From positions 124,001 through 188,000 of the forward strand of contig QPGO01000126.1 of NCBI GenBank assembly GCA_008632985.1: DNA of 64,000 nt. The letters are read 5' to 3'. Under the pieces are notes generated by a model. It was given only the letters and a program-made list of their open reading frames with translations, had not been told where the DNA came from and searched no databases. Position 1 is the stretch's first letter. Each line of letters starts with the position of its first letter. This document shows positions 11,200 through 55,790 of this stretch, piece after piece. The DNA comes from Psammoneis japonica (Eukaryota). The translations under genes were made by a program, and so were the position numbers.

Positions 11200-12660
11200 A
11201 ACAATCAGCGAACCCAATCGGAAATCGGGTTCAGTTTTCTCACAAAAATGTGGCTAACAACAAAGTCGACACACTGCTCTCTGGAGAGCCAACATCTTTT
11301 TGGCACAAGAAGCAGCGCCCAAGTGCAGCGCCTGGTGCAGCTTTGTCAATGTGCACACCAAGCCCAATTTCACCAAGAATCACTCCAGGATGCTGCCACA
11401 GTGCAGCCACAAACACGGACACATGTCGCCTGCAATCGCCACCATGGCTGCACCAGACAACGCTGGGGCAGCTGTGCAACAGCCGATTGTTGTTTTGTGT
11501 CGCAGCACTCCTGACTGGATTTCCAAAAGCCCAAAGCTTGGGTTGTGCACTCTGCAAATTCATTGTCTTGTGCCAGCTCTGCCGTGACTCTGCCAACACA
11601 GTGAGAAGAAAAGCGACAACAGGCACACAGCTTTTGTGCCAAGCTGTCTTTTCAGCTTCATTGCCAGCATCACACTTGTTTGAGGCAAGCTTCTTCCTTG
11701 TTGGTTGAGGCCCAGCACACTCACATCACACTCAAGCTCTCTTTCAAAGCCAACACAAAGCGACTTTTCACACAGTGGGCCTGGCTGCTCCAGCCTGTTG
11801 ACAAAGAAAAAGCCTGCACAAGAATTGCTGAAGAAGAGCTGGGGGCACCAATGAGTGCAGGAGTGAGCTGAGTGTCCATTGTGATGACCTCATGCTTGCA
11901 CTCTTTTTGCCGCAGGCACCAGTGCAGCCAGGTTCTCACAAGAGGGTGCACCTTTTCCAGAGCGCGCACTGGGTCTCCTGGCCTGCCCACTTTCTCAGTT
12001 GCTTGGGCTTGTCTTGCTTGTTTAACAGAGCAAAGTTGTCACATTTCAACCAGGCATGTTCAGCCAAGCATGAATGCCAGCAAACTCATGCCTTTTTTCC
12101 TGGTCAAAAGATGCTCGGCGCTGAAGCCATCGCACACCCAGCGGCGCCATCGCTCCAAAGTTTCCCACCTTTCCCCCAATTTCTTTGTGGTTGTTTGTGT
12201 CTTTGCCAGCCTTGCATTTTTGCTTTGTCCATGTTCTTGGTGCAAAGAGGAAACAAGAGGAGCACTCTGGGGCTGGTGCCGCGCCGCACACTCTGCTCAC
12301 TCGCGAGTGCTTTTTCCGCAGTTTTTTGAATCTGAAAGGCAGCCATTGCACCACACAAGAACTTGGCAATTTTTTGGGCATCATCATGGCCATGTGCACC
12401 ACAAGAATGTTCATGATGCATCATCAGCGCTGTCTTTCTCAGGTTTGTGGATGAGCTGAGCATGCTTGCGCTGAAGAGTCGCCCAGACGTCAAACGTGCA
12501 CACCACGAACCCGCCACCAGCGAACATGGTTTTGGCACAATGTCAGGGAGGCACAGCACGGGCATCTTTATCGTGCATTTGTGAAAATGAATGAATCGCG
12601 ATGGCTGCATTTGAAATGATGTGTGGCGCCCTGTCTCCACTAGAGCAGAATTCAAAGTGT
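11200..12660. mobile_element. Decayed, almost TpA-free repeat-like tract (element type unidentified)
   Basis: One TA found between 11260 and 12565. TG/CA-rich, with only Cys/His-rich spurious ORFs. Being a transposon is inference. Confidence 0.45.
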
Positions 12661-12997
12661 TGAGGCAGGTGTCAACCGTGTCATGAATGCGCCACCACGT
12701 CGTGTGTTCTCCACGAATAAATCCGCGAACTGCCCCTCATCAGAGGACAATTCGTCGGAACTCAGATTCCTTTCAATGTACCGCCATCAGTAACATTTCT
12801 ACGAGATGTCGGGAATGAAAGAAGGAGCGCTCTTACCACCGCATGTTTCAGTCGCACAATCCAATCGCGCTTGTGTGATGCATCGTGCGTTCTCATCACA
12901 GAAGATTTTCGCATCTGCTCGCATCTGGCATCTTCTTCAATCTCTCATATCTTGCAGAACCACAAAAAAAGATACCTAAAGATACGCTTTCGAGACA

Positions 12998-13834
12998 ATG
13001 GCCAAGAGACTCGCGACTCAGATTGTGATTGCCGCCTTTCAGGACGAAGAGGCTGTGGATGCCGTTGAAACGGCAGTCGCCAGTGCAGAATGGGACGCCA
13101 AGCAAATCATTTGCACCAACATGGCCAAGGCCAAAAAAGACAAGGCTGGCAAAATGTCCGTCAAGGAATTAGGAAAGCCGAGCGACGTTGGAGCTGCAGC
13201 CACGGGCGGTGGTATCGGTGCGGTCTTGGGTGGATTGGCTCTTTGTTTGCTGGGACCAGCAGGAGCGGCGGCTGGTGCCGCTGCCGGAGGAGCCACCGGA
13301 GCGGCTATCGCTGGCTATGCCAATCATCAAGTGGAGGGTCTTGACAAGGACAAGCTCCAAAAGCTTGGGACGGCTCTCAAACCCGGCACTTCGGCCATTG
13401 TCTTGGTTTTCGATGAAGTTATTGTCTCCAAGAAGGATATTGAAACCGAGTTGGAACTATGGAAGGAAGGTACCGACTTGTTAGTGGATTCCATGACGAC
13501 CAAGATTACCGAACACTTGGAGGCCGGTGACGACATTGCCTATCATTTGGCGTTGGGTGCCGATGGATTTACCGGTTCGCGTTTTGTACTTGGAAAGGAC
13601 GCCATGAATATCCATAACTTGGTCTTGACGCCTGAATTCATTTCGGCGGAAGAATTGACCGCCACGGAGGATGGTGTTGCCTTGGAGGCGGCTGTTGCCA
13701 CGCCGGAACAGCTCACGACGGCTCGTGCCTTGCTCACGTCTTCGGTATGTGCTTATGAAGTCACGGCTATGACAGAGGATGAAGCCGTCTATGAAGCTGG
13801 TGTTGCAGTCGCGGATAAACAGTTGGAAGAATGA
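12998..13834 (+). CDS. DUF1269-like glycine-zipper membrane protein, copy 1
   Basis: IVIAAF..KKDKAGKMSVKE..GGGIGAVLGG..GAAAGAAAGGATGA..G.DKDKLQKLG.ALKPGTSAIVL resembles the bacterial DUF1269 pattern. Intronless. Confidence 0.75.
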   Translation: MAKRLATQIVIAAFQDEEAVDAVETAVASAEWDAKQIICTNMAKAKKDKAGKMSVKELGKPSDVGAAATGGGIGAVLGGLALCLLGPAGAAAGAAAGGATGAAIAGYANHQVEGLDKDKLQKLGTALKPGTSAIVLVFDEVIVSKKDIETELELWKEGTDLLVDSMTTKITEHLEAGDDIAYHLALGADGFTGSRFVLGKDAMNIHNLVLTPEFISAEELTATEDGVALEAAVATPEQLTTARALLTSSVCAYEVTAMTEDEAVYEAGVAVADKQLEE

Positions 13835-14483
13835 GAAGTTGATTGACGAAAGGCACCCCTTTTCTCGTTGTGTAAGTTGTTTAGTAACTTGGTTATTCAG
13901 TTTTATTTTCTATTATAGAGTATGTTATAAAGTATGCTACAGTGCATCGACATATCCTAGCATAATGAGCTAATGCTTAGCTCGAGCTTACAACAGGAAG
14001 AGATGAAGACGATCGCTTTCTGACTACTAGGGCCCTAGTACACGACTTCAAACCACAACACGCTCCAACTGCAGCCGAATTTAGAAGACTTAGCTGTTCG
14101 ACAGCTATCTAGTTGAAAACTACGATGATTTTGTGATGAAAGCTGTCTTTTCCGGCAATTGTTCGATTGGGTTGCCTTCGTTAGGATACGAGGCTTCATT
14201 TCGCAGAGGAAGGAATCGGATGCAAAATCTTGGTCCCCAGAGACACTGTGAACGAGCAATTGCTGCGCACCGCGCAGTAGCTCCGACTGACAGAATAGCA
14301 GGGTTAGGACGCTGCTGCGGTACCAAAACATGTCGCGTTACGTCTTCACAAATGCCATCTTCTTCCCTCGGCTCTTTGTCTTGTCTCTAATCATGACGTC
14401 TCACTCTGGCCAGAGTCTTGTCAGGGACAGGGCTGTCTGCTAAGAACTGAGAGAGAGGCGGGCCCCTGCATGCCCTTTCTGGA

Positions 14484-17400
14484 TTACGACCAGTTGTGTG
14501 CTTTTAAACAGAAGATTGAGGGAGCCCATGTAGAGTGGAAGGGAACAGCAGAGGGAGGCACGGAGGTGGCTGTAGAGACGGTAGAGCAGAAGGGTCGAAG
14601 GACGCAAGACGAAGGGCGTTTTGAGGAAGGCATGGGTGAGGAGGGAGCAGGGAGAGAGGAAGTGAATCGGAGGATGTGCGTAGAAAGGTGAAGAACGACG
14701 TTGCAGGCAAGAGTTTGGGTGGCCCACTGGGATGGGGTGGCCGCACGGTGGGTGTTCCCAAAGCGATCGGCGGACAGGCGACGCCATTCGAAGTCAGCGG
14801 AGGGAAGGATTGCAGACGGAGACGACAAAGCGTAGAGCGAGGAAGGCGGAGCAGGAGGCATCGGAGTGACGAAAGTCAGAGGAAGAGGACCAGGGTGGCT
14901 TGGGCTGAGAGCCGATGGAGGAGGATGTAGAACCAAAGAGCAAGCGGTGAGCAAAGCAGCCGAGACCACCAAGGTGATCTACAGTGAAGGGGAGCAGGAA
15001 GATGCCATCGTTGTCAAGCGAAGAAACAACAAGGGATCCATCGGCAGAGGAAGTGGAGGGGCCAAGAAACTTCAATCTCGCGCTCGAGTGGTGTGCCTCA
15101 GTCAAAACAGGAGAAGAGGGGGCAGGCAGACCTGGAGGAGGGCGAGAGGAAGCTTGAGGGACGGCAACGTCCACTGCAATGCAGTGATGGCGGGAGGGAG
15201 TGGAAAGGGAGGCGGGAGGGGGATTAAAATGCCGACATCAGCGGGACGGAGGAGCGGGCGGGTGGGGAGCAGGTTGGTGGGTTCAAGATGAACGTCATTG
15301 GGGATCGACAGAACTCTGCAAGAGGACCCAAAGTTTGGGCTGGGATGAAAACAGTGCCACCGAGACCATTGGAGAGCTTGGACTTGTGAGCACGGCGGCA
15401 AGAAAAGGCATGATCACCACAGGCATCCAGGATGGCATGGCCACAGGGACAGGGAGTGTTGACAAGGGACGGAGGAAGGATGGGGAGACGAAGCTTGCGA
15501 AGGGCGGCAATGACGCAGGCGTCCGAAGAAAGGCGGGAGCTTGGGAAGCGACGGGAGAAGGAATGAAGAGGGAGGCTTGTAAGCGGAGATGGCAATGAAG
15601 GGAGCGAAGATTGCACGTCGTGACATGAGTTGGCAAGGATGGAGGTTGCTGCTTGCTGCTGATGTTCATGGCAGAGGCGACGAGCCAGGCCAGGAAGAGT
15701 GGCCGATTTAACCAGGGCAGCCAAGGAAGAAGAGGAAAGGGTGGAGGCGGAAGCCAGAGCGGGAGCATGACGGCGGAAGAGCGCACAGAGTCGCAGGGAA
15801 GAGCGAGGGTTGGACCAGGAAGACAGGGAGAGCCGAAAGCAGTGCGGAAGGGAAACAGAAGCGCCAGATGGCAGGCTGACACCGTGCGAAGCAAAGCGGA
15901 ACGAGCGGAGAAGCGACACCAAGAAGGAAGGAATGGCAGCAGCTGTTGGATCTCGGAGACCAAACCCGCCTGAGGAGGCAGGAAGGAAGGCGATGGCAAT
16001 AGAATGATCAGGAAAAGGAGCGGCGAAGGAAGTGACGCAGTGAAGAAAGCGGTGAGTGACGGTGAGGAGGAAATCTTGAAACGGAGAGGTCCAGAGAAAG
16101 GGGTCGGGAGGATTGTCGGGGTCGAAGTTGTGGCAGAAGTCAGCCCCAAGGAGGTGAGCAGAGGATGGAACAAAACAGTGCTTGAAGAGTTGAGCCTGGG
16201 TTTGTTTGTCATGAAGACGGGTGAGAAGCACATCAACTTTGTCGGAGAGAGCAGAGGAAGTGTCGGAAAGGAAGGAGGTGGTGAAGTCGTGGGAGCCAAG
16301 GGGCTGTCCGAGGAAGCAAACACCAGAGGTGAGTTCGGGGTTGTAGGAGGGGTCATTGGCAGGGTTTAAGAAGGAAAGTGCAGCACAGAGAGGATCGGCA
16401 CGGGAAGGGGGAAGAGCAGGGATGGGGCTAACACCGGCAATGGAGGTGAGGATCTTGGTTTTACGGAGGTTGAGGGAGATCCCGCAGGGAGCGCCGAGGG
16501 CGGAGAAGCGTTCAAGGAACCATGGGAGCACGGAATGGGGAAGGAAAGCATGAGCATCATCAACGCAGGAGCCAACTGAGACAGAGGAACGGCCAGGGAT
16601 TCGTTCTTGAAGTTCTTGGTTGATTGGACGAAGAACCAGAGAGAGGACTGGGCTGGCGAAGACAGGGCCGAGAGGGCATCCTTGGGCAAATCCCTCTTCT
16701 TGAAGAAAGGAGCCCCAGGAAGAATCGGGTCGGCGATGCCAACATGCATTGGAACTTTGACATGGAAGGTCAAAAAAAGGAAGCAGAGGATGGAAGGCAG
16801 GGGTGGAGGTGAGAACGTGTCGACAGGCGTCTCGGGATGCTTCGTTGAACACATTGACAAGGTCAAGAAGAAGAAGAACCTTGGTGGAGTCGGCGGAAGA
16901 AAGACATTGTTCAATGTTGGCAAGAGCAGAGTGAATGAGACAATCGAGGCCACCTTTGACACCAATGCCAAATTGGCCATCTGGGAGGAGACATTCGGTG
17001 AATGCAGAACCAAAGAGAGTCATGACGACGGAGCCAGCAATGCGACGGAGAGCAGTGCCGACGCCAATGGGGCGAAGCTTGTTGAGGTCGCTGGCATCTT
17101 CATGCAGAGCGACAAAGCAGTTTGAAGCAAACAAGGAATGGACGGAGGGAGGAATGGAGCCATGGAGAAGGAGAAGGACAAGCTCACGGAAGGATGACAA
17201 GCAGGGACGTTGAGCAACTCCTGTCGGGGTTTTGGCAGAATGAAGGGCGCAGGACTTGAAGAGGTCGGAAGAATCAGCAAAGACGCCGGCAGCAGTCCCA
17301 GGCTTGCATTTGGAGAGAGCAGAAAGAAGAGCGTCGGAGGAGAGCTCAATGGGCTCGTCATGAAGGGAGGAGGCCAAGCGAGTTGAAGGAGGATCAGGCA

Positions 17401-18741
17401 GGTCGGAGGGATGCAGGCGAGGAGGGTAGAGCTTGAGGATGGTGGGAAGGCATTCAGGAGCAACGGCAGCAACAGGAAGCGCAGAGGTGAGCTTGGAGCA
17501 GGCCGAGTGAAAGTCATCTTCGTCGGCGCAGACTTGAGCGGAACAGCAACATGTGGAAGCAGAAAAGTCGGGGGAAGATGAGGAGAGGCGCGGCGCATGG
17601 GAGCAGGCTTCGTGGCAGAGTTGGCGAATGCAGCCACGGCGGAAGAGGGACAAGCGGGAGGCAATGGCTGGGCCAAACTTGGAGCGTGGCGGAACAGGAG
17701 CAAGAATGAGAGCTTCAAAGAGCAAGAGAAGCTTCCAGAAGGGAGTGGAGTCACGTTGCCACGTAGGAATGAGATGGGAAGGGTCAGACAGGGGCTGGGA
17801 GGCGGCCAGCACCCAGCTTGTCACATGGTGAAGAGCGGAGCAGAGTTCCTTGCGGGCAGAGGACGAGAGCTTGCGGCGACAGGAAGCTCGGAAAGGCGGA
17901 GGCTTGAGTGCAAGAGCATGGAGCCATTGTAGCGAGGGACCCCAGTCACCTAGATTGTGGAAGGACGAGAGAACAATGTCAGTGTTGAGGGAAGAGCGAG
18001 GAGCAAAGTGCTTGTTCTGCAAGTGATTGCGGAGGTGGGTGGCAGACAGGCGGGTGTGTTGGCCGCGATTGCAATGCCTGCAGACACGCAAACCAGCGGT
18101 GTCAAAGAAGGACGTAGGTGCATGAGAAAGGGAGAGGCAGGGATGCTCCTGGCAAAGATGGCTGCGCACAGTGGCAGGAAGAGATGATGCATCAATGGAA
18201 GGAGGGGACCAGGAGCAGAAGGGGCAAGTTGGCGGGGCACGGGCTTCGGTGGGCTCCACGAGGCGATGAGGTCGCGGAGGGAGTCGATGTCAGGGGCTGC
18301 AGCCCGGATGGCTTCTTCGTAGAAAGGTTTCCAGGCAGAAAGGCGGGCCGGGCAGCAAGCACCTACGAAGGCATCAAGGACATCCAAGAGCTCCATCTCG
18401 CGCTGGGACTGCTGAGGAGAAACCGAGTCATCAGATTCGGTCTGCACAATTGCATCGGGAGTGGTGGGGGGCGGAGAGGTCTGCACAACTACGGCAGGAA
18501 TGGCAGGGGGTGGAGAGGAAGCATCGGGAGAAGAGTGGGGACGCTTGGAGGGAGGAGGCTCGGTGGTGAGGGAGCGGGCTTGGGGAGGATGGGAGGAAGG
18601 AGATGCAGCAGTGGGGAGCGGATCTTGGGGTTTGGGGAGCTGCCAGTCTTGAGCAAGCAGCTCGAGGGCACGACACGAGAAAGAATCTCGAGAGGGGGCA
18701 GGCGGCTGAAGAGCAGCAGAGGCGTGGGATGGGGAAGCCAT
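14484..18741 (-). mobile_element. Non-LTR retrotransposon of RLE type (CRE-clade-like), copy 1, degenerate
   Basis: N-terminal C2H2 fingers (CPFC..H..H; CRHC..H..H). RT motifs LRPIGVG..RR, QFGIG, LDLVNVFN, GFAQGCPLGP, CVDD (ex-YVDD). C-terminal CPCG..GDHAFSC, RPADV, DVAV. Frameshifted; element ends not resolved. Confidence 0.9.
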
Positions 18742-19020
18742 GCTGTCGCCATGGGTAGATTTACGCAAAGAAGAAGGCGTGCGTGCTGTGTTGTCCGTTT
18801 GGCTGTGCGATGCGATGCTTACCTGCATGCCATGTTGAGCACTTTTCTGCGTCATCTGCTTTCTTGTCTGTGCGTGCCATTTTTGAGTTTCGACTTCCGA
18901 AGACACGCCGACACGCACAACGCACACCACGAGGCACGCAACATGCAACAAACTCACAACGGATGTACGGCACCGACTTCAGATGCCAGTGAGTGTAAGA
19001 ACGAATCGCATGCTGTAACC

Positions 19021-22000
19021 ATGGAATCAACTGATGTTGTCGCTGCTTCCACCAATGAGGAAGTGTCCGTGGCAAGCAGCTGTACGAGCGAGCATCAGAC
19101 GGCGCCAGAGGATCTCGAGCCGAGTCAACAACTAAAGCCCGTTTCAGAGCTCGCAGCCGTTCCAGAAGAAGAAGAAACAACACAAGAAGCGTCTCCGGTT
19201 CAGCTCTGGCATTCGATGCATGCGGAATTGCAAAATGTTTGCAAGTCTCTATCGTGTTCGTTGTGTTTGAGCACCTGTGCAAATCCCGTCATTTTAGACT
19301 CGTGCCTTCACGCATGCTGCCGAGACTGTATTTTGCGTGCGCTGCAGGAAAATAAAAAGTGTCCTTCATGTGGCAACAAAGCCACGAGACGTTCTCTGGT
19401 GGATGCTCCGCATTTCGAGTCACTCGTCAAGGCATGCAAGCACGTATCTCGTGCCATGGGACTGACTCCTGTGGAGTATGACGAGGAATTGGAAGGGTGC
19501 ATGACACAGCTGCCGCCTGAAGAACAAGAAGGAAACAAGGCATCGCTGTTGGATTGTCATGTGCATTTGCAAGTCTCCAAAACGTGGCATGACGTGTTGC
19601 AACGCACATCTCATCATACGACACAAGAAGAGCGCCTGTTACAAGAACGGGCCAAGGTTGTAAAGGCAAACGAGCGTGCTTTGGTCAAAGCTGCAGTGAG
19701 ACAGCAACAAGAAAAGCAGAGCAGCAGAGCTGCAGCAGCTGAATCCAAATCGCCACAAGAGTCACCCAAGTTGGTAACCTTTGCCACCAAGAATGATTCT
19801 TCTCAACGAGATAACGACGAAAACTCGCATACCACCATCAACAACGAAGAGGAAGAGGAGTTTCTGACTGGAAACGAGGAACAACCACCAGACGTACCGC
19901 CGACGAGCCAAGAGCTTCGTGACGCTTCCATGGAACAAGAAGCGACCAATCGTCCCGCCGAAGACATGCTACATGAAGAGCAAGTGCTGCAAGAATCCGC
20001 CACCAGCATGGTGCCGCCCACGAGCCAAGAAATTCGAGACGCCTCCATGGAACAAGAAGCGGCCGATCGCTCCGCGGAAGATATGCTTTATGAAGAGCAG
20101 CAAGAATCATCCACGGCCAACACGCAGGACTTATTTAGTCCCAACACACGCGAAACCATGAGACGTCTTAGCAAGGAAGCCAATGATGTGTTGGAGTCTC
20201 TTCACAAGCCGTCCGAAAGCAGCAATAGTAACGATAATGATGATGACGATGGTATGGTGGCAGAAGTTTTGAATCTCGAAAAGGCAACCGAAGGCTTGCG
20301 TCGTGAATTAGACCGACCCGATCTCAAGAGACAAGCCATGAGTAGTAGTGGCGAGGGATTAATGCACGAGACGGAAGCATCATTGCCGAATGATGAAACC
20401 GACGATGCTTCGTTTGCGAATGATAACGAAAACAACGATTCATCCGAGAGCAGCGACTTTGATCAAACGGCAGGGACGCAAGATATTCGAGATATTCTGG
20501 ATTTGCCTCCGCCCCGCAAGCGCTCGCAACCTCAAGAAGACAAGGAGAACCAAACTCCAACTCAGAACCAAGCTTCGACACCAGCGACTAGAGTGGTTGA
20601 AAAGAGCATTCCTGAAGAAGTACCTCAGCAAAAAGAACCGCAACAAGAAGTAGAACGTGAAGACGAGCCATCGCACTACGCTGTGGGGACGGTGGTGCAG
20701 ATTCAGTCGCGAACGTGGCCGGGTGTCAACAAACCGGGTGGTGTTGCGCGGATATCTAAGGTATCGCTTGAACCATCCATTACCTATGACGTTTCCTACG
20801 TGTTGGGTGGTAAGGAAAAGTCGGTCGATGCAGGATTTGTATCACTCTACAACGACAGCATGAAGCAAGAGCAAAAGGCTAGGCGAGTGACCGTCAAAGA
20901 AGAATCATCATTAGAAATTCCAGCGTCTCTTTTGTTGAAACTTAAGGCTAGTGGATTTGCCACTGACGCCAAGACGGAACGCGCCGTATTGAACAAGGCG
21001 AAAAAGGAAAGGGAATCCAAGACGGACCACACGAAGGCGACGAAAGTATTGAAAAAGGCGGCGAAGAAGGCTCCAACAAAGCCGGGCGACAAGCGTACTA
21101 ATAGTAAAGCCCCAAAACCGAAGCCTAAGCGTCGCAAACGAGACCTTACCGACAACGAAAAAATCGATTTGGCCGATGCTCATTATGCCGAATGGTTTCA
21201 ACAGGCTCAAAGCAATGGCATTGTATACGTGGTGTCTTCGTTTCTATCTGATCGAGACAATGACTTGTTGCAGTTGCTCTGCAAAGAAACTAGAAAATCA
21301 AAAGGTTTGTAGCTGACCGATACGAACCGCTCGCAGCGTCTACCATTCCACTCACTTCCACTTTGTGCTTCTTCTTTTCAGTGGTCGTGAAAGTTTCAAG
21401 CGTGTTTCACCCGTCCAAAACGACACTTTGCGTCATGCCAACTGCGCCGAAAGATCCTACTACCTCTCGGAACCGGTCTCTCAAAGCAATGAGAGCCTCT
21501 CTAGCTGGAGTGCCGATTGTGTCGCCCGATTGGATCTCGACTTGTCTCGAGAAGAAGGAAGTAGTCGAGCCCACCACCTTTATCCGAACCATTACGACTC
21601 GCACGACGCAACTTGTCATCTCACCGAAGCTCCAGCTTGGCATAGCCTTGACCGCTGCAAGAATCCGCGCCCATCAAGCCTTGCCTCTTCACAATGTACA
21701 TGTTTTTTTGTGTGGGTCTTTTGCTTCGCCACGCAAAGTGGATATTCACGTGTTGCTGCGGGAATCTGGGGCACATCTTTTGTCGTCCCTAACGGCAACC
21801 ACGAAAAAGCTTAAGAATCTCTCGAGTGATGATGATGAGCCGGTAGTCCTCTTGTGCGATGATGCAGAGTCGACAAGCTTGTCTGATGCATTGGTAAATG
21901 CTGCAACGAGAGCCATAGACTCTGGCTCTGGAGTTTTGGCGGTAGACGCCGCTTGGCTTTTTGATTCCATTACTTGTGGCATAGTCATGGCCGCAGAGTA

Positions 22001-22055
22001 CTATGAGCCAGCAAATTCGAACGCAAGACAGTTGTGGAAAATGAGTCGAGCATAG
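19021..22055 (+). CDS. RING + Tudor-like + tandem BRCT protein (BRCA1/BARD1-like), copy 1; intron 21305-21381
   Basis: C3HC4 RING (CSLC..C.H..C..C..CP.C), acidic linker with SQ/TQ sites, and BRCT signatures (SLKAMRA..GVPIVSPDWI; AAWLFDSI). The GT..AG intron joins both ORFs in frame. Alternative start 18943. Confidence 0.85.
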
Positions 22056-23802: not shown

Positions 23803-24164
23803 TTCTCTAGAGAGAAAGTGTCGAGCATTGTATGTTCTCAGTTTGAAATTAGTTCAACTTGTGCCGGTGTTCGGTTGAGAGACTTGAATCCTTCCTTGTT
23901 GTAACTCTAGTTGCAATTGGAATCGACGTGAACTGCAAATGCTAGCAGGAGACGTCCAACAGTTTTTCCTGGGACCGTCTGCAATGCAACCTGCAATCCT
24001 CCGAAAATGAAGTTCGCCTCGTAAGTTAACCCACAACCCGCGACCGACGTGCCATTGACGGAGCCAAAGGTTTCAGAGATGTTGGTTTCGACACTACAAT
24101 TTCACGTTCATCGTACAAAGGGCGTGGCTCAGCGAAGTCGATCAAAGGGAGCAATGCCTTACAA

Positions 24165-24905: not shown

Positions 24906-25129
24906 GCTTCTTCTTTTAGATTTCGGTTCTGTTCAGATGGAAGAATTAACAGTCTTAAAGAGGAGCAAAGAGTTCTCGCTTCTCGCCCTCCATTCCCTCC
25001 AACCTCAATCACAATCAATCAGTCGCAATCATCTACGATTTTGGGATTTTAGGTTTTGCTCACCGATTTATTTACGGACGATGGACAGCCCTGTGCTAAC
25101 CGACAGATATAAAATGCGCATGCATGCAT

Positions 25130-45900: not shown

Positions 45901-47201
45901 GGATGGTGGGAAGGCATTCAGGAGCAACGGCAGCAACAGGAAGCGCAGAGGTGAGCTTGGAGCAGGCCGAGTGAAAGTCATCTTCGTCGGCGCAGACTTG
46001 AGCGGAACAGCAACATGTGGAAGCAGAAAAGTCGGGGGAAGATGAGGAGAGGCGCGGCGCATGGAGCAGGCTTCGTGGCAGAGTTGGCGAATGCAGCCAC
46101 GGCGGAAGAGGGACAAGCGGGAGGCAATGGTGGGGCCAAACTTGGAGCGTGGCGGAACAGGAGCAAGAATGAGAGCTTCAAAGAGTAAGAGAAGCTTCCA
46201 GAAGGGAGTGGAGTCACGTTGCCACGTAGGAATGAGATGGGAAGGGTCAGACAGGGGCTGGGAGGCGGCCAGCACCCAGCTTGTCACATGGTGAAGAGCG
46301 GAGCAGAGTTCCTTGCGGGCAGAGGACGAGAGCTTGCGGCGACAGGAAGCTCGGAAAGGCGGAGGCTTGAGTGCAAGAGCATGGAGCCATTGTAGCGAGG
46401 GACCCCAGTCACCTAGATTGTGGAAGGACGAGAGAACAATGTCAGTGTTGAGGGAAGAGCGAGGAGCAAAGTGCTTGTTCTGCAAGTGATTGCGGAGGTG
46501 GGTGGCAGACAGGTGGGTGTGTTGGCCACGATTGCAATGCCTGCAGACATGCAAACCAGCGGTGTCAAAGAAGGACGTAGGTGCATGAGAAAGGGAGAGG
46601 CAGGGATGCTCCTGGCAAAGATGGCTGCGCACAGTGGCAGGAAGAGATGATGCATCAATGGAAGGAGGGGACCAGGAGCAGAAGGGGCAAGTTGGCGGGG
46701 CACGGGCTTCGGTGGGCTCCACGAGGCGATGAGGTCGCGGAGGGAGTCGATGTCAGGGGCTGCAGCCCGGATGGCTTCTTCGTAGAAAGGTTTCCAGGCA
46801 GAAAGGCGGCCGGGCAGCAAGCACCTACGAAGGCATCAAGGACATCCAAGAGTTCCATCTCGCGCTGGGACTGCTGAGGAGAAACCGAGTCATCAGATTC
46901 GGTCTGCACAATTGCATCGGGAGTGGTGGGGGGCGGAGAGGTCTGCACAACTACGGCAGGAATGGCAGGGGGTGGAGAGGAAGCATCGGGAGAAGAGTGG
47001 GGGCGCTTGGAGGGAGGAGGCTCGGCAGTGAGGGAGCGGGCTTGGGAGGATGGGAGGAAGGAGATGCAGCAGTGGGGAGCGGATCTTGGGGTTTGGGGAG
47101 CTGCCAGTCTTGAGCAAGCAGCTCGAGGGCACGACACGAGAAAGAATCTCGAGAGGGGGCAGGCGGCTGAAGAGCAGCAGAGGCGTGGGATGGGAAGCCA
47201 T
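42949..47201 (-). mobile_element. RLE-type non-LTR retrotransposon, copy 3
   Basis: Same motifs, with extra 1-nt deletions mostly in homopolymers. Confidence 0.9.
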
Positions 47202-47478
47202 GCTGTCGCCATGGGTAGATTACGCAAAGAAGAAGGCGTGCGTGCTGTATTGTCCGTTGGCTGTGCGATGCGATGCTTACCTGTATGCCGTGTTGAGCAC
47301 TTTTCTGCGTCATCTGCTTTCTTGTCTGTGCGCGCCATTTTTGAGTTTCGACTTCCGAAGACACGCCGACACGCACAACGCACACCACGAGGCACGCAAC
47401 ATGCAACAAACTCACAACGGATGTACGGTACCGACTTCAGATGCCAGTGAGTGTAAGAACGAATCGCATACTGTAACC

Positions 47479-50400
47479 ATGGAATCAACTGATGTTGTCG
47501 CTGCTTCTACCAATGAGGAAGTGTCCGTGGCAAGCAGCTGTACGAGCGAGTATCAGACGGCGCCAGAGGATCTCGAGCCGAGTCAACAACTAAAGCCCGT
47601 TTCAGAGCTCGCAGCCGTTCCAGAAGAAGAAGAAACAACACAAGAAGCGTCTCCGGTTCAGCTCTGGCATTCGATGCATGCGGAATTGCAAAATATTTGC
47701 AAGTCTCTATCGTGTTCGTTGTGTTTGAGCACCTATACAAATCCCGTCATTTTAGACTCGTGCCTTCACGCATACTGCCGAGACTGTATTTTGCGTGCGC
47801 TGCAGGAAAATAAAAAGTGTCCTTTATGTGGCAACAAAGCCACGAGACGTTCTCTGGTGGATGCTCCGCATTTCGAGTCACTCGTCAAGGCATACAAGCA
47901 CGTATCTCGTGCCATGGGACTGACTCCTATGGAGTATGACGAGGAATTGGAAGGGTGCATGACACAGCTGCCGCCTGAAGAACAAGAAGGAAACAAGGCA
48001 TCGCTGTTGGATTGTCATGTGCATTTGCAAGTCTCCAAAACGTGGCATGACGTGTTGCAACGCACATCTCATCATACGACACAAGAAGAGCGCCTATTAC
48101 AAGAACGGGCCAAGGTTGTAAAGGCAAACGAGCGTGCTTTGGTCAAAGCTGCAGTGAGACAGCAACAAGAAAAGCAGAGTAGCAGAGCTGCAGCAGCTGA
48201 ATCCAAATCGCCACAAGAGTCACCCAAGTTGGTAACCTTTGCCACCAAGAATGATTCTTCTCAACGAGATAACGACGAAAACTCGCATACCACCATCAAC
48301 AACGAAGAGGAAGAGGAGTTTCTGACTGGAAACGAGGAACAACCACCAGACGTACCGCCGACGAGCCAAGAGCTTCGTGACGCTTCCATGGAACAAGAAG
48401 CGACCAATCGTCCCGCCGAAGACATGCTACATGAAGAGCAAGTGCTGCAAGAATCCGCCACCAGCATGGTGCCGCCCACGAGCCAAGAAATTCGAGACGC
48501 CTCCATGGAACAAGAAGCGGCCGATCGCTCCGCGGAAGATATGCTTTATGAAGAGCAGCAAGAATCATCCACGGCCAACACGCAGGACTTATTTAGTCCC
48601 AACACACGCGAAACCATGAGACGTCTTAGCAAGGAAGCCAATGATGTGTTGGAGTCTCTTCACAAGCCGTCCGAAAGCAGCAATAGTAACGATAATGATG
48701 ATGACGATGGTATGGTGGCAGAAGTTTTGAATCTCGAAAAGGCAACCGAAGGCTTGCGTCGTGAATTAGACCGACCCGATCTCAAGAGACAAGCCATGAG
48801 TAGTAGTGGCGAGGGATTAATGCACGAGACGGAAGCATCATTGCCGAATGATGAAACCGACGATGCTTCGTTTGCGAATGATAACGAAAACAACGATTCA
48901 TCCGAGAGCAGCGACTTTGATCAAACGGCAGGGACGCAAGATATTCGAGATATTCTGGATTTGCCTCCGCCCCGCAAGCGCTCGCAACCTCAAGAAGACA
49001 AGGAGAACCAAACTCCAACTCAGAACCAAGCTTCGACACCAGCGACTAGAGTGGTTGAAAAGAGCATTCCTGAAGAAGTACCTCAGCAAAAGAACCGCAA
49101 CAAGAAGTAGAACGTGAAGACGAGCCATCGCACTACGCTGTGGGGACGGTGGTGCAGATTCAGTCGCGAACGTGGCCGGGTGTCAACAAACCGGGTGGTG
49201 TTGCGCGGATATCTAAGGTATCGCTTGAACCATCCATTACCTATGACGTTTCCTACGTGTTGGGTGGTAAGGAAAAGTCGGTCGATGCAGGATTTGTATC
49301 ACTCTACAACGACAGCATGAAGCAAGAGCAAAAGGCTAGGCGAGTGACCGTCAAAGAAGAATCATCATTAGAAATTCCAGCGTCTCTTTTGTTGAAACTT
49401 AAGGCTAGTGGATTTGCCACTGACGCCAAGACGGAACGCGCCGTATTGAACAAGGCGAAAAAGGAAAGGGAATCCAAGACGGACCACACGAAGGCGACGA
49501 AAGTATTGAAAAAGGCGGCGAAGAAGGCTCCAACAAAGCCGGGCGACAAGCGTACTAATAGTAAAGCCCCAAAACCGAAGCCTAAGCGTCGCAAACGAGA
49601 CCTTACCGACAACGAAAAAATCGATTTGGCCGATGCTCATTATGCCGAATGGTTTCAACAGGCTCAAAGCAATGGCATTGTATACGTGGTGTCTTCGTTT
49701 CTATCTGATCGAGACAATGACTTGTTGCAGTTGCTCTGCAAAGAAACTAGAAAATCAAAAGGTTTGTAGCTGACCGATACGAACCGCTCGCAGCGTCTAC
49801 CATTCCACTCACTTCCACTTTGTGCTTCTTCTTTTCAGTGGTCGTGAAAGTTTCAAGCGTGTTTCACCCGTCCAAAACGACACTTTGCGTCATGCCAACT
49901 GCGCCGAAAGATCCTACTACCTCTCGGAACCGGTCTCTCAAAGCAATGAGAGCCTCTCTAGCTGGAGTGCCGATTGTGTCGCCCGATTGGATCTCGACTT
50001 GTCTCGAGAAGAAGGAAGTAGTCGAGCCCACCACCTTTATCCGAACCATTACGACTCGCACGACGCAACTTGTCATCTCACCGAAGCTCCAGCTTGGCAT
50101 AGCCTTGACCGCTGCAAGAATCCGCGCCCATCAAGCCTTGCCTCTTCACAATGTACATGTTTTTTTGTGTGGGTCTTTTGCTTCGCCACGCAAAGTGGAT
50201 ATTCACGTGTTGCTGCGGGAATCTGGGGCACATCTTTTGTCGTCCCTAACGGCAACCACGAAAAAGCTTAAGAATCTCTCGAGTGATGATGATGAGACGG
50301 TAGTCCTCTTGTGCGATGATGCAGAGTCGACAAGCTTGTCTGATGCATTGGTAAATGCTGCAACGAGAGCCATAGACTCTGGCTCTGGAGTTTTGGCGGT

Positions 50401-50512
50401 AGACGCCGCTTGGCTTTTTGATTCCATTACTTGTGGCATAGTCATGGCCGCAGAGTACTATGAGCCAGCAAATTCGAACGCAAGACAGTTGTGGAAAATG
50501 AGTCGAGCATAG
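47479..50512 (+). CDS. RING-BRCT protein, copy 3 (1-nt deletion in A run ~49090, possibly an error)
   Basis: Three ORFs colinear with copy 1. Confidence 0.75.
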
Positions 50513-51285
50513 TTACGAAACTCTGAATCTACCTATAGAAATTTGATTCTGAATGAGGACACCCGTGCCTCCAGTCGAACCAGTTATTCAAACGAATTCC
50601 GATGGACTTCATCGTGTGGAACGGCGACAACCTCCTTTCCGTAGATAGTATCTAGAGGTTTTCACTCGCATCCGCTTCTTGCTGTTTTCTCTATGGCATA
50701 GTAGCTACCGGTAAGGCTTAGAAAGAGAGCTATGTATCAACAATGCTGCTCGCCGTCCAAAGAAAAAAGTTGGTGTTTGAGTCGTGATTGACACGCTCGC
50801 GCCACCTCTCCCTGTTTGCCCAACCCAACTCACTTGTACCCGAAGGATCGTGCCTCAGCATTCATCCTTCATCCCAGCGGCTTTTTATTATTTTCCCATT
50901 ACCGGTTTTTAGAAGCTCCACCGTCTTCCATCTTCGATCCTCCTCATGAAATCAAACCTTTTGCAAATAAAACGGAAAGATACATAGAGGAAACACGATC
51001 TTGTCGATCTCTTCTGTATCTCTCGTCCCTTTTATGGCGCTGCTCGCAGGAATTCCCAATTCCCTTTGTATCATTGAACCTCATGACTGAGGATCATGAT
51101 TCATGTAACCATGACTGAACTTAGCCTTGCTTCAGATGCGTTGATCGATTTCAACACGATTGAGATCATCTGATTCTCTCCACCCTCCACGCTATCGGTC
51201 ACTTTTTTAAACAGAGACGAGATCTGCTTCTCTCACAATCTAGAAACGCTCCTCTGTTCAAGGAACAGCTGTCTTGCATTGCAAC

Positions 51286-52260
51286 ATGGCCTCTCGTGCT
51301 CATTGTCCTCCAGCCTCTGTCTCAAAGGGATCCGAAGCGACCGGCGTTCCCGAGAAGGAGCCGACTGTGCCGAAGCCGACCATTCTCCTCAACAATGCTG
51401 TCAACTACTCCCACGGTCATCGTACGTCCCAAACAGTCTGGACTGTGTTGAAGACTAGCTTTGTGCTCGTCAGCCTTTTCTGGGGATGCAATCACTTCGT
51501 TTCTAAGAAACCGTCAGTTAAGGATGATTTGACATACTTCACTTCAGGTCTTCAGCGCCAAAATAACCTGGCCAGCATTGAGGACCTGCCAACAGACAGT
51601 TTTCATAAATGTGCTCAGGCATGTTGCGTCAAGTCATTTCATCCAGCAGACGAGGTCCGGCAGCTTCTTCGAAAGAAGCTCAATCGGTTGCCCGTTGAAG
51701 TTCGAGAAAGCATCATAGAAACAGTTGTTGAGGAAGGAGTCACCGACCTAAATTCCTTTGGTGATTCGACGGCGACGTTTGCGGCCGATGGTCGAGCACA
51801 CTATTTCAAAGGCTTTTACTCTGCCGTCTGCGACGACACCTTCACGGTCTTCAAATCCAAAATGTACGCGACTTGCGTCGTTGCATCCGGAATCACCTTT
51901 GATGTTGCTGAAGCAGTGATCGATTACAAACAAGAAACTAGGGAAGAGGTGGTTGGCGTGAAGCCATGCGAGTGTGGCTACTTTTGGTGTGCAGAGTGCC
52001 CTCTCACAAAAACCAAGACAGTCAAGACGCCCGTGTTCAAGCGCCATAGCCTGACTCTGAAGCAGCAAGGCCAACTTTCAGAATGGTTAAGGAGGGAAGC
52101 AATGATGGAAGCTGAAGATGTCGTTGGAACCGGGAGGACTATCCACATGAGTCCCCCCAGGGCACGACAACTCGACGACGCGATCAAGGACTTTGCAAAA
52201 CCAGACTTGGAGGGTAGCTTCTATCATCTGGAAGGGAACGCCTCCATTGCAGACATTTAA
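51286..52260 (+). CDS. Unknown single-TM protein, copy 3 (intact frame, 324 aa)
   Basis: MASRAHCPP..., hydrophobic VWTVLKTSFVLVSLFWG and a CECG.FWC..CP motif. No family recognised. Confidence 0.6.
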   Translation: MASRAHCPPASVSKGSEATGVPEKEPTVPKPTILLNNAVNYSHGHRTSQTVWTVLKTSFVLVSLFWGCNHFVSKKPSVKDDLTYFTSGLQRQNNLASIEDLPTDSFHKCAQACCVKSFHPADEVRQLLRKKLNRLPVEVRESIIETVVEEGVTDLNSFGDSTATFAADGRAHYFKGFYSAVCDDTFTVFKSKMYATCVVASGITFDVAEAVIDYKQETREEVVGVKPCECGYFWCAECPLTKTKTVKTPVFKRHSLTLKQQGQLSEWLRREAMMEAEDVVGTGRTIHMSPPRARQLDDAIKDFAKPDLEGSFYHLEGNASIADI

Positions 52261-52618
52261 TTCTCTAGAGAGAAAGTATCGAGTATTGTATATTCTCAGT
52301 TTGAAATTAGTTCAACTTGTACCGGTATTCGGTTGAGAGACTTGAATCCTTCCTTGTTGTAACTCTAGTTACAATTGGAATCGACGTGAACTGCAAATAC
52401 TAGTAGGAGACGTCCAATAGTTTTTCCTGGGACCGTCTGCAATGCAACCTGCAATCCTCCGAAAATGAAGTTCGCCTCGTAAGTTAACCCACAACCCGCG
52501 ACCGACGTGCCATTGACGGAGCCAAAGGTTTAACAGAGATATTGGTTTCGATACTACAATTTCACGTTCATCGTATAAAGGGCGTGGCTCAGCGAAGTCG
52601 ATCAAAGGGAGCAATGCC

Positions 52619-53365
52619 TTACAATCGTTTCCAAGAATACAAACTTGCCCCTAAATCAATGGTGGCTTCTCCGTCCGGTGCAAAAGCCAAATCCCCATTA
52701 TGGATATTTTTCCACACGGAGGAATCCCCCATTGATCTCAAGAGTACTTCAGATGGAATGACGTTGCTGACACAAAACAGAATTCCTCCTGGTGCCGTCA
52801 CTCGCGTCAATTCCGTTATAGAATCTTGAAATACATCCTTCCCAGTAATGTATATTGCATCCAAGGTACCCTTATCGAAAATAGCATCAATCGATTGATT
52901 CGGAATCATGCGCAAGTTTCTAGCATCGGCCGTTACCAAAGAGACATTAGTATTTCGCAGTCGATCGGGTCCAAACAGTTCCTTGGCACGATCAATTCCA
53001 GCTTGAGAATAATCAAAGGCTGTCATGGTTTGGTTCCAGCCAGCATCATACAATTCGATGGGAGTCGGATCATTTCCCATGCCTGCCACCAAGACATGAG
53101 CTTGGTAATTGGGAACCAGTTCCCTCCAAAAGGGAGCAATTTCATTCCAACCGCAATACCAAGAATACGAACTCGAAGGACGATCTCCGACTCCCTCATA
53201 CATTTCATCCCAATAGCTCTTCATCCCAAATTTACATTTCCCCGTTGTTTCATCCATGTTGGCATTCTTCGACGGCAACACTACACAAGAAGAGTGCGAC
53301 GATTGATGCAGTCGACCTTGCATGGCAAAGGCTACTGCAACAAGAGCTTTGGGAACGAAGACCAT
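52619..53365 (-). CDS. Class I SAM-dependent methyltransferase (METTL13/EEF1AKMT4-like), copy 3, least mutated
   Basis: YWDEMY, YSWY, VLVAGMGN (motif I), FDYS, DAR, FDKGTLDA, PGG. Confidence 0.85.
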   Translation of the reverse strand: MVFVPKALVAVAFAMQGRLHQSSHSSCVVLPSKNANMDETTGKCKFGMKSYWDEMYEGVGDRPSSSYSWYCGWNEIAPFWRELVPNYQAHVLVAGMGNDPTPIELYDAGWNQTMTAFDYSQAGIDRAKELFGPDRLRNTNVSLVTADARNLRMIPNQSIDAIFDKGTLDAIYITGKDVFQDSITELTRVTAPGGILFCVSNVIPSEVLLRSMGDSSVWKNIHNGDLAFAPDGEATIDLGASLYSWKRL

Positions 53366-53589
53366 ACTTCTTCTTTTAGATTTCGGTTCTGTTCAGATGG
53401 AAGAATTAATAGTCTTAAAGAGGAGCAAAGAGTTCTCGCTTCTCGCCCTCCATTCCCTCCAACCTCAATCGCAATCAATCAGTCGCAATCATCTACGATT
53501 TTGGGATTTTAGGTTTTGCTCACCGATTTATTTACGGACGATGGACAGCCCTGTGCTAACCGACAGATATAAAATACGCATGCATGTAT

Positions 53590-55790
53590 GTCTCTCGCTC
53601 TGAGATCCCTCAATTTTCATGTCACTGGTGCCGTGCTCATTGCCACTGTCCTTGCATCTTGTTGGATTGATCAGACACAGCAGTCTGACAGGTTATGGCC
53701 TTCATTAGATTGTTCTGCTGTGTCAAGAACAACTGATTTGTTTTTTTTTTTGGCAGACGAGACGATGCCCTTGCTTCTTGTGTCCCTCTCGGGTGCAGAA
53801 AGCAGCTGCAGGCACGTCAGCAGAGGGTCATCAGCACTGCAGAAGACATGCTGGAGCCTGTGGGTGTTTTTTTCTGCACCTCCAGCATGACCAAAGATGA
53901 GAAAAATGGCAATCTTCTCAAGATTGTCAAGACCACTTTGCTGTCAATTTCAGCCCCCTTCACATCACCCTTGTTTTGCTCTCCAAACGATGCTGGCACA
54001 CTGCTGCTGTGTCCTCAACCACAGCTTTGCACCAACAATTGCCTTCCCCTGGGCAACATTCTGGATGGCTTCACTCCTTGTGGTCTGTGCAGCAATTCCA
54101 CGCCAATCATTTGTCAGAAGATTCTCCAGGACTTGATCGTTCTTCAAGCAGCGGCTCTGCGCACTCTTTGAAAAGAAGGCACACCTCTGCCAGGTGCTGT
54201 CAGCAACCCAAATGGACCTCAGAAACATCTGAACTTCTTCTCCTCTTTGCAGAAGACTGCGCTTCAAGCAACATGATTTGACAATGATGGCGCTGTTGAG
54301 ATTCACATTGGGGCAGTGTTGCTCTTTTTCTGACACCCGGCATTGCATCACACAGGTGCTCGCCACATGCTCTCCAACGGCTGTCCTCCAGATGATCAAC
54401 CCTCTGACTGCAACCTCTTCAGGTGCTCCTGCCCCTCACTTGACATGGGAGTCATTTTTAAATGTCACAACACACGCACCTCCCACTCATTCTTGACAAC
54501 ATCAACAGCTTGGCATGAGAGACCACACCAGCAGATTGCACACTGCAAGCAACCACACTGCAGCTCACCTTTGCCTCTCTGCAAGACAACAACCAATCAG
54601 CAAACCATGGCCCATGGCACCCACACATGCCCAGCTTTGGGAGGCCCTGCCTGAAAAAAGCGCACATCATCACCCAGCATGTTGTGCCAGCTCCCTGGGT
54701 GTGCTGCTGTCTGCTGCTGCTGGTCAGCAGCACATTGCTGAAGCAGCCACAGCAGCATGCTGCTGATGTTTTGTTTGTTGCCTGGGTCATGAGAGCATTG
54801 CTGATGAGAGTTCCTTGGCAGTGTCTTTTGGGATTGTTTTTTCTGTGACAGAACCCTCTTTATGTTGAAAAGAGCCAGGGGTGTGCGAGTCATGCAAGCA
54901 ATGTGTCACAGCTGCTGCAGCAATGGAATGGCTTGAGCTCAATGTCCTGCTCATCTGGTTGTGGCCATCATGCAGGCATCAGATGAATGGGCAATGACAA
55001 CACTCTTCTTTTTTCACATGCGCCGCTTTTTGAAACATGAGTTTTTTCCTTGGTGGGGCACAGCCTTGGTGCATGCTGCTGTTTGTTTTGGTGCAAAAAT
55101 TGCCACAAAATGATTTCAAACCTGGACAGAGATCCCTTTTCCTGTTGGCCTGAGCTTGCATTCCAACCCTGGGTGGGGCTGTGCATGACATTGGGCCCAC
55201 AGAGTTCTGTGCACAAGCTCTGCAGCAAAGTCATCAGGTGATTCTTGCCAGCAGGAAATGAGGGGCAATTTTGTGAAAACCTGTGAACTTCACATTTGAG
55301 GCACGCCACCTCCAGCTTGCCCAAACATTAAAAAAATGCCCAGCCACTTTTTGTTCTTAAAAATGATGAAAATTAAAAGCCTGTGGCTTCACAAAACAGG
55401 GAGCATCAAACAATTTTGCAGAAGATCCGAGTGCAGAAAACCTCTCACATGACAGTGCAGCAAAAGGTCCCACCCAGAGCTGGAGCACATTGAGAGCTTC
55501 TGTGTTTGGGGCCAATGTGAGAAAGCAGGCTCCACACTGTGTCTCCCTGAGAAGGGGATCTCCATTTCTGAGCACAGTGCTCCACATCTGCTGGGGGCAT
55601 CTCTCATGATGTCAGTGTTTGCTGCACACAAGGAGTCGGCTGGCCTGTGAAGAAAACATCCCTGCCACTCTCCAATGGTTTCAAATTGCTTTCAACAACT
55701 CAACCCTTGCAAAATCTGTGAATCTCTGCTGTGATTGGCAGTCAAAACAGGGCAGTCAGCAATCAGTCGCCCATGGGGTAAATTGACAGT
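53590..55790. mobile_element. Decayed TpA/CpG-depleted tract, full-length version crossing the right amplicon boundary
   Basis: Same composition continues ~550 bp past 55238. TA returns abruptly at ~55790. Confidence 0.45.

Follow-up and report, generated by a model that had tools for sequence, protein, structure and literature searches.

The closest described system to the one considered here is that of Bigelowiella natans, in which integrated DNA of nucleocytoplasmic large DNA viruses (NCLDV) and virophages undergoes hypermutation of the A>G/T>C type that is restricted to the dinucleotide TpA (Mettrop et al., bioRxiv 10.64898/2026.01.13.699255, 2026). According to the sections of this preprint considered here, 231 of the 302 nuclear mutations in mutation-accumulation lines fell within the integrated giant-virus and virophage regions, and A>G and T>C made up 230 of the 231 mutations in these hypermutable regions; all of these lay on TpA and arose at a rate of ∼6e-7 per site per generation (∼1e-7 to 1e-6 in some lines). 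The TpA-poor coding sequences of B. natans are enriched for reverse-transcriptase and transposase domains, and an ADAT2-like deaminase has been proposed as the agent (10.64898/2026.01.13.699255). Here we describe a tandem array in a 64,000-nucleotide stretch of DNA from Psammoneis japonica (contig QPGO01000126.1 of assembly GCA_008632985.1, positions 124,001 to 188,000; hereafter the window, numbered from its first letter), in which a putative retrotransposon open reading frame (ORF) and the genes next to it have lost TA dinucleotides in favour of TG and CA. We consider it probable that this locus records TpA-specific A:T>G:C hypermutation of the B. natans kind, acting in place and on DNA.

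The likeness to B. natans, as far as the examined parts of the preprint describe it, extends to the near-exclusive A>G/T>C change on TpA, to its regional character, with rates in B. natans that exceed the background by orders of magnitude, and to the loss of TpA with a gain of CpA and TpG. The differences are that B. natans is a chlorarachniophyte, whereas the gene homologs at this locus come from diatoms; that mutations were measured there de novo, whereas the present evidence is comparative, from paralogs and outgroups; that the recognizable target is a retrotransposon here and a giant virus or virophage there; and that the observed/expected (O/E) ratio of TA is 0.03-0.15 here compared with 0.45 for the NCLDV region. 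Those sections mention neither a spill-over into host genes nor the A-T-A-Y context or the shortage of double changes described below, and the main text of the preprint uses neither 'trinucleotide' nor 'diatom'. An earlier reading of the window, made from the letters alone (below, the original prediction), had known of no described system with this signature, a statement that the 2026 preprint has put out of date (10.64898/2026.01.13.699255); our literature searches found no report of the signature in diatoms, nor anywhere except that preprint.

Fungal repeat-induced point mutation (RIP) shares with this locus the localized, dinucleotide-specific transitions in mobile or duplicated DNA, the same CpA/TpG-TpA pair and the leakage. 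It runs in the opposite direction, however: TA is lost here, no stop codons are made, and TAA and TAG are erased. Furthermore, the changes at this locus extend over only part of the duplicated DNA, they include one zone beyond the repeat, and the lineage is non-fungal. The contrast with RIP and with the decay of 5-methylcytosine (5mC), already drawn in the original prediction, stands, since TA is both ancestral and depleted.

The tandem array and the differences between its copies

The DNA of the window is eukaryote-like and intron-poor, with a G+C content of ∼50%. Self-BLAST showed a 14.2-kb unit repeated three times in tandem (copies A, B and C; see Table 1), with 98.5-99.4% identity between copies. 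Each unit contains a DUF1269 gene, a long minus-strand ORF with a weak reverse-transcriptase (RT) match, a RING-plus-BRCT gene, an ORF whose family is unassigned (ORFx) and a gene for an S-adenosylmethionine (SAM)-dependent methyltransferase, and ends in a 1.6-kb tail without recognizable content. Diatoms (Cylindrotheca, Skeletonema, Detonula, Amphora, Cyclotella, Thalassiosira and Leptocylindrus) are the source of the named homologs for both the methyltransferase and the flanking opine dehydrogenase. The best identity is 64-68%, which points to a diatom whose own proteins are probably absent from the database. Copy B is interrupted by a gap of 445 N (35631-36075). Twelve single-base gap columns are private to copy C (41009-50000), compared with six each in A and B; they break the DUF1269, RT and RING frames and reflect either real decay or a weaker assembly consensus.

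The copies were compared in a three-way MAFFT alignment, in which only columns readable in all three were counted. There were 175 substitution columns, 174 of them two-state, with 169 transitions and only five transversions. Among the 150 variable dinucleotide loci, 97 have TA in opposition to TG and/or CA (TA/TG at 46, TA/CA at 38, TA/CA/TG at eight, TA/TG/CG at two and other combinations including TA at three), 23 have CG in opposition to CA or TG (CG being present in two copies at 17 of them and in one copy at six), 11 have CA in opposition to TG, and 19 show other changes. The original prediction of mostly TA versus TG or CA, with a CG minority, thus describes these loci well. The differences are clustered, with ∼100 of them located over ORFx and the methyltransferase gene and none in columns 500-1500 and 7500-9500, which hold 43 and 68 TA, respectively.

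Logan contigs of two runs (X1 and X2) from one sample include the TA version as well as the mutated one. An X1 contig matches the TA version of 18708-22524, and an X2 contig matches the copy-A version of 19042-21302 with no differences, apart from a 77-nt GT..AG skip. These contigs back the assembly but are not independent of it, as the assembly was possibly made from this very sample. The 77-nt skip (21302-21380) joins the RING ORF, which ends at 21312, to the BRCT ORF in the manner of a spliced transcript, and the two ORFs are probably two exons of a single BRCA1/BARD1-like gene; the spliced contig carries the hypermutated copy-A version of it.

TA is the ancestral state

Three copies alone cannot be rooted, and each pattern could also be read as RIP-like C>T change; we therefore turned to outgroups. 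All 90 homologs found for the methyltransferase were aligned. At eight variable columns the homologs have Tyr (69/75, 81/82, 78/83, 83/83, 76/90, 89/89, 67/89 and 75/89), and at two more they have Ile (89/89) and Met (69/72). Copy C agrees with the homologs at all ten of these conserved columns, whereas H, C, R, S, T, M or V are found in the other two; the motif YWD..Y of copy C, for example, has become HWD..H in copy A and CWD..R in copy B. In the RING region, for which all 17 homologs found were used, two conserved aromatic columns are occupied by Y (15/16) and by F or Y (F5/Y1) in the homologs and by Y in copies B and C, as opposed to Cys in copy A. The changes of copy A in this region are Y336C, Y349C, L366S and Y389C, and its match to Pfam zf-C3HC4_2 has dropped to 27.6 bits, compared with 41.8 bits in copy B.

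For the RT ORF, the outgroup consisted of the 38 relatives of at least 800 aa among the first 50 of 1997 matches. All four conserved Tyr columns are occupied by Cys, including that of the catalytic YxDD motif, which reads CVDD in all three copies, whereas other conserved columns have been kept (L 46/52, P 31/35, G 24/26 and W 5/5, i.e. 85-100%). Tyr makes up two of the 1165 residues of this ORF (0.2%), compared with 1.3-3.7% in the 38 relatives. Counting from copy C in columns 11000-12500, TA had changed to non-TA in A or B at 39-41 of 63 positions (39-40 in A), and the reverse was seen at none of the 23 TA of copy A.

Because the conserved state in the homologs of the methyltransferase, RING and RT proteins is the TA state, these alignments indicate that TA is ancestral and TG/CA derived, and that mutation ran from TA to TG or CA, the reverse of fungal RIP. 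This direction had been proposed from the letters alone on the strength of three protein examples (CVDD; HWD..H and CWD..R; RING Tyr to Cys), all of which are present; with the copies aligned and the context spectrum polarized by homologs, as had been suggested, TG/CA proved not to be ancestral at the columns tested.

Sequence context of the changes

Mutation rates were calculated with the intact lineage (copy C) as ancestor over a patch spanning columns 9500-13000, counting A targets on both strands. From C to A, A>G-type changes had occurred at 58 of 244 A's preceded by T and at 1/572, 2/502 and 1/543 of those preceded by A, C and G, respectively. The A's of TpA thus account for 58 of 62 A>G-type changes while making up 244 of the 1861 A targets, an excess far beyond chance; C>T changes were found at eight of 1626 positions. 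The comparison of C with B gave 46/244 after T and 2/573 after A, and the corresponding figures for the RING patch were 15/72 and 0/175. TpA accounts for 46 of the 50 A>G-type changes in the former set and for 15 of 16 in the latter, most but, unlike in B. natans, not strictly every one. A>G-type changes outnumber C>T-type changes by 62 to 8 (C to A) and by 50 to 5 (C to B). Such rates bear out the idea of a single event, in which an A that follows T becomes G on one or the other strand, and an even spread of A>G over all contexts, which would have spoken against it, was not seen (24% after T versus 0.2-0.4% elsewhere).

The bases around the TpA also matter. Mutation was ∼4 times as frequent at TAC (59/171) and TAT (45/160) as at TAA (13/140) and TAG (12/151), giving an odds ratio of 4.9 for TAY over TAR (P=7e-13). 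An A at position -2 raises the rate to 61-67% (ATAC, 22/36; ATAT, 8/12), compared with 6-7% at CTAG and CTAA (CTAG, 1/16). The preferred context is A-T-A-Y. The two strands were mutated about equally (35 versus 23 changes in one comparison and 24 versus 22 in the other), and the changes on them are interspersed: strand-coordinated runs were absent from three of the four sets, the remaining one giving P=0.037. Mutation of the same TA on both strands was observed only twice, compared with 10.9 cases expected. This shortage fits a strict demand for T at position -1, because the first change turns the context of the opposite A into CA.

Error-prone repair by Pol-eta, whose WA motif implies A>G at both TA and AA, had been among the candidate agents of the original prediction and is excluded by the single change among 572 A's after A. 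The tolerance of A at -1 that marks the ADAR-type context is likewise missing, along with the WA pattern, from all three sets (1/572, 2/573 and 0/175). ADAR enzymes tolerate A at -1, with a preference of U ∼ A > C > G, and need double-stranded RNA. The likeness of the present changes to those made by ADAR and APOBEC lies in a deaminase-type hypermutation that is fossilized in mobile copies; APOBEC, however, gives C>T, and both act before or during integration, whereas the copies studied here have diverged in place. For ADAR, the B. natans preprint, in the part considered, notes that an upstream U is favoured (10.64898/2026.01.13.699255).

TA-free zones and the retrotransposon ORF

Two kinds of degraded DNA without recognizable content, in and next to the array, are almost free of TA, poor in CpG and, in the left zone, rich in CA and TG (Table 1). 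The left zone has a TA O/E of 0.12-0.19 and a CG O/E of 0.39-0.80, and the unit tail a TA O/E of 0.03-0.14 and a CG O/E of 0.19-0.41. The limits of 11200 and 55790 that had been set for the phenomenon match the outer edges of these zones. As for homology that might have served as a substrate for recombination, the left zone showed only a 47-bp match to the unit, at chance level, and the right flank only a weak match of 32 bp; neither the ORFs scanned in the TA-free zones nor ORFx had a match in Pfam. As the tail and the left zone are poor in CpG, ordinary 5mC decay has probably been active there too, and it is a possible source of the 23 CG-type loci.

The third TA-poor region is the RT ORF. 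Its longest copy matches RVT_1 below the gathering score (Table 1), but its relatives pass this model; there are 1997 of them, 148 with E<=1e-30. Zinc-finger-like motifs and the motifs CxC..GDH..C, RPADV and DV can be seen in the window sequence and the family consensus, and we take the ORF to belong to a non-long-terminal-repeat (non-LTR) retrotransposon, perhaps of the R2/NeSL/CRE type with a restriction-like endonuclease, whose members combine an RT domain with N-terminal C2H2 fingers and a C-terminal CCHC / PD..D nuclease motif. The TA O/E is 0.14 over the whole ORF and 0.06-0.10 in its core, compared with 0.43-0.83 in 80 related RT loci from metagenome contigs (kept out of 118 confirmed), which indicates that TA loss is not a trait of this RT family. 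The coding strand of the RT subfamily is strongly pyrimidine-rich, with a purine fraction of 0.31 here, 0.29-0.36 in most of the closest metagenome relatives and 0.45-0.53 in more distant ones; on the plus strand, the skew is as high as +0.38 for GC and +0.36 for AT. Since transitions cannot give a purine skew, this is a trait of the RT subfamily. At 18000-18872, the 5' end of the RT ORF, the summed depth of X1 contigs is 340-600, compared with ∼118 over the neighbouring gene; this figure is not a copy number, but it hints at further copies of the element elsewhere.

The loss of TA has consequences for reading frames. A change of TA to TG or CA makes no stop codon and removes TAA and TAG, and the affected DNA therefore contains many overlapping long ORFs. 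In the TA-free zones, TAA and TAG together occur at 3-6 per kb over six frames, compared with ∼30 per kb in normal genes, a 5-10-fold depletion, whereas TGA is not reduced (32-49 versus 33-37 per kb). In ORFx of copy B, codon 366 (37963-37965) has gone from stop to Gln by a TA>CA change, which extends the ORF from 338 to 399 aa; the stop is kept in A and C.

The opine dehydrogenase gene has kept its TA, as had been said of it and of ordinary genes generally: the 54 TA in its ORF of 1428 bp are close to the 23 per 540 bp counted earlier. A single-copy F-box/leucine-rich-repeat (LRR) gene at 10000-11200, beside the left TA-free zone, has a TA O/E of 0.31, compared with 0.44-0.74 in windows further left, and this lowered value may be a mild spill-over. 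Runs of two to three successive windows at 11001-13000, 25001-27000, 39001-41000 and 53001-56000 lie beyond both cut-offs of the B. natans preprint, which correspond to the 5% tails of B. natans and may not transfer. The windows of the RT ORF lie beyond the TA cut-off (0.06-0.25), with CA/TG means of only ∼1.2-1.45.

Mutated tracts and their history

The mutated tracts run for 1-3 kb from the TA-free zones into the genes of one duplicate lineage (Table 1), while the host genes of the other lineage, represented by the start of copy B and by copy C, are not mutated. Copy B is a mosaic: outside its single tract there are no TA changes relative to C (none in columns 9000-11255). In the tract common to A and B, columns 11255-13000, copy C has 69 TA, of which 28 were changed in both A and B, nine were changed in both with different products, two only in A and six only in B. 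Shared and split changes together show that the process was active both before and after the split of A and B, with hot sites. In the tract at 14102-15182, nine loci between 14238 and 14749 pair CA of one lineage with TG of the other. The loss of TA in the RT ORF and in the unit tail was complete before the triplication.

The concentration of changes in and beside element-like DNA, part of the original prediction, is confirmed, as the tracts adjoin TA-free zones. The trigger implied there by the terms repeat-associated and reverse-RIP is not supported: large duplicated stretches contain no mutated TA (columns 0-1500 and 7500-9500), and the zone at 11200-12543 lies outside the array. With tracts that adjoin TA-free zones and unmutated duplicated DNA between them, these observations argue for spread from silenced elements, which fits better than a RIP-like mutation triggered by homology.

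Table 1. Coordinates of the array, the TA-poor regions and the mutated tracts in the window
Feature	Position	Strand	Remarks
Tandem copy A	12543-26773		Most mutated copy in host genes; self-BLAST, three-way alignment
Tandem copy B	26774-41008		Mosaic; first ∼11.25 kb C-like (intact), remainder A-like (mutated)
Tandem copy C	41009-55238		Ancestral TA state kept in methyltransferase and ORFx
Left TA-free, CpG-poor, CA/TG-rich zone	11200-12600		0-1 TA and 40-49 CA+TG per 200 bp
TA-free, CpG-poor unit tail	25200-26800 (A), ∼39430-41030 (B), 53700-55700 (C tail and right flank)		0-1 TA per 200 bp
RT ORF, longest copy, 1165 aa	29026-32523 (B)	-	RVT_1 E=2.7e-6, below gathering score
RT ORF counterparts	15224-18289 (A), 43760-46752 (C, split)	-	Same ORF in the other copies
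Mutated tract in A	14102-15182		Beyond 3' end of RT ORF; 10 TA changes; both lineages struck
Mutated tract in A	17723-19722	+	From RT 5' end into RING end of RING-BRCT gene; 16 TA changes
Mutated tract in A	22443-25234		ORFx and methyltransferase, adjoining TA-free tail; 58 TA changes
Mutated tract in B	38034-39363		Methyltransferase; 43 TA changes relative to C
Intact SAM-dependent methyltransferase ORF, copy C	52619-53392	-	Ancestral reference; equals the 90-homolog consensus at every well-conserved variable column

Other features of the window

An ORF of 840 aa at 1740-4262 has no Pfam match and resembles a Pro/Thr-rich repetitive protein. Tandem repeats of 81 bp and 348 bp are found there, and repeats of 24-27 bp occur nearby.

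Proposed mechanism

At this locus, the RT ORF of a dead, putatively non-LTR retrotransposon and two degraded zones were stripped of nearly all TA before the array was triplicated, and the process stayed active afterwards, with no fewer than two rounds and a duplication between them. It entered the RING-BRCT gene, ORFx and the methyltransferase gene of one duplicate lineage for 1-3 kb, where codons for Tyr, Ile, Leu and Met were destroyed, no stop codon arose, and TAA and TAG were lost. The mutator would be recruited to silenced mobile or foreign DNA and leak into the neighbours, where the damage may survive only if a second, intact copy of the gene exists. We infer from this pattern a recruitment to silent mobile DNA and, as is also done in the B. 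natans preprint (10.64898/2026.01.13.699255), a role in defence and a deaminase chemistry; here, a TadA/ADAT-like enzyme that needs T at -1 would convert adenine in DNA to hypoxanthine. As the specific chemistry, adenine deamination is a tentative choice, somewhat less likely than not.

The tRNA adenosine deaminases TadA and ADAT2-ADAT3, fungal TAD2/3 and the TadA-derived adenine base editors resemble the proposed agent in deaminating an A that is preceded by U or T, and the bacterial TadA substrate is U-A-C, TAC being a favoured context here. Their natural substrates are RNA hairpin loops, however, whereas no loop preference was seen here, and TAG and TAA were the least mutated. No deaminase domain or other candidate enzyme was detected among the 63 window ORFs scanned with Pfam; these scans took in part of the 83 ORFs that reach 110 aa, 35 of them in one scan and others in earlier ones. 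Within the ORFs scanned, the earlier remark that no responsible enzyme is identifiable in the window holds.

Several points weigh against this interpretation. Polarity is proven at conserved coding columns and extrapolated to the non-coding tracts, and the 23 CG-type loci, which may stem from ordinary 5mC decay, cannot be polarized. Two of the three TA-free zones have no recognizable coding content, so that a mobile or foreign origin is no more than possible for them. When 41-nt windows around 73 mutated and 167 unmutated targets were folded as DNA, there was no preference for hairpin loops (P=0.40 for mutated versus unmutated A's; P=0.32 for TAY only), although a deaminase of the anticodon-loop type might be expected to show one. 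None of the 80 related RT loci was depleted in TA, although the pattern used in that search, NMFN, is destroyed here by the process itself (NVFN), which biases the search against mutated copies. A chemistry directed at thymine predicts the same spectrum as one directed at adenine. Finally, the evidence comes from one locus of one genome, and nothing in it shows that the process is common.

Alternative explanations

The thymine-directed chemistry just mentioned would have the T of TpA, with R-T-A favoured, modified by an enzyme (for example oxidized in a JBP/TET-like manner) and then mispairing with G or being wrongly repaired, to give T>C; A>G would be this event seen from the opposite strand. 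Hydroxymethyluracil in dinoflagellate DNA indeed favours TpA and TpC, the spectrum is symmetric and does not tell which base of the pair is attacked, and the interspersion of strands, with coordinated runs in only one of four sets (P=0.037), is what such a chemistry would also leave. We regard it as unlikely: no such enzyme or modification is in evidence here, and T at -1, Y at +1 and the few double changes read at least as simply as recognition of T-A-Y around an adenine. The sole proposal for this signature published in the sections considered is adenine deamination (10.64898/2026.01.13.699255). Distinctly unlikely, in our judgement, is A-to-I editing of element transcripts at the RNA level, followed by reverse transcription, with the host genes altered by conversion from edited cDNA. 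It would account for the replacement of all four conserved RT Tyr by Cys and none by His, i.e. for A>G on the sense strand, and for a sense-strand TG O/E of the RT ORF (1.36-1.51) slightly above that of CA (1.16-1.38); moreover, mRNA editing by fungal TAD2/3 prefers U at -1, in the part of that report considered (PMC11156358). Against it, the host genes have been changed within tandem DNA on both strands at the near-equal counts given above (35 versus 23, and 24 versus 22), the tracts include intergenic DNA, TA-free zones without an RT are affected too, and TAG and TAA, frequent targets in fungi, are the least-mutated contexts here.

An artefact, either wrong base calls at modified bases or alleles stacked as a false array next to the N gap, appears very improbable. 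The 445-N gap, the 12 private gap columns of copy C, which suggest uneven consensus quality, and the origin of both runs from one sample, possibly the assembly's own, leave some room for it; but contigs of the two runs carry different versions, the spliced-looking X2 contig, presumably a cDNA, carries the copy-A version although DNA modifications are absent from cDNA, the status of the copies as alleles would leave the context-specific, polarized spectrum unexplained, and all copies share the same RT Tyr>Cys changes and the same TA-free zones. The reverse polarity, with TG/CA or CG ancestral, copy C mutated and the changes being RIP-like or 5mC-type C>T, is so improbable that we set it aside. 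The unrooted copies make it equally parsimonious, and the CpG O/E of 0.19-0.41 in the tails suggests that C>T may cover the 23 CG-type loci. The outgroups, however, disagree with it at ten methyltransferase, two RING and four RT columns, and C>T would enrich TA and make TAA and TAG, whereas TA has an O/E of 0.03-0.15 and TAA/TAG are depleted 5-10-fold. As a source of the TA-type loci, C>T is refuted by the outgroups; the CG-type minority is excepted.

Implications

Silenced DNA becomes richer in A+T under RIP, APOBEC and 5mC decay alike, whereas a mutator that reads TpA runs the opposite way. The locus described here would be a new lineage for a known kind of process, with a footprint that is more extreme and better resolved than that of B. 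natans. A wider reading, more doubtful than the deaminase chemistry itself, is that of a chromatin-coupled TpA-editing defence shared across distant stramenopile-alveolate-rhizarian (SAR) lineages, diatoms and Rhizaria among them, and carried out by a natural DNA adenine deaminase with an A-T-A-Y footprint. Such a system would strike silenced mobile DNA again and again until no TA is left, leak into the genes next to it, pseudogenize redundant duplicates by missense, not by nonsense, and leave such regions full of long false ORFs.

For annotation, the loss of TAA and TAG means that affected DNA is filled with long ORFs that gene finders call as genes. For the host, the locus shows a cost, the collateral loss of neighbouring duplicated genes. 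The enzyme, which would be a natural adenine editor of DNA, is constrained by this locus to a strict T at -1, Y at +1 and A at -2, to action on both strands and to rare double changes. Its occurrence in a second group, one that is distant and ecologically dominant, would suggest that the process is widespread and old, and would open it to testing in organisms for which genetic tools exist.

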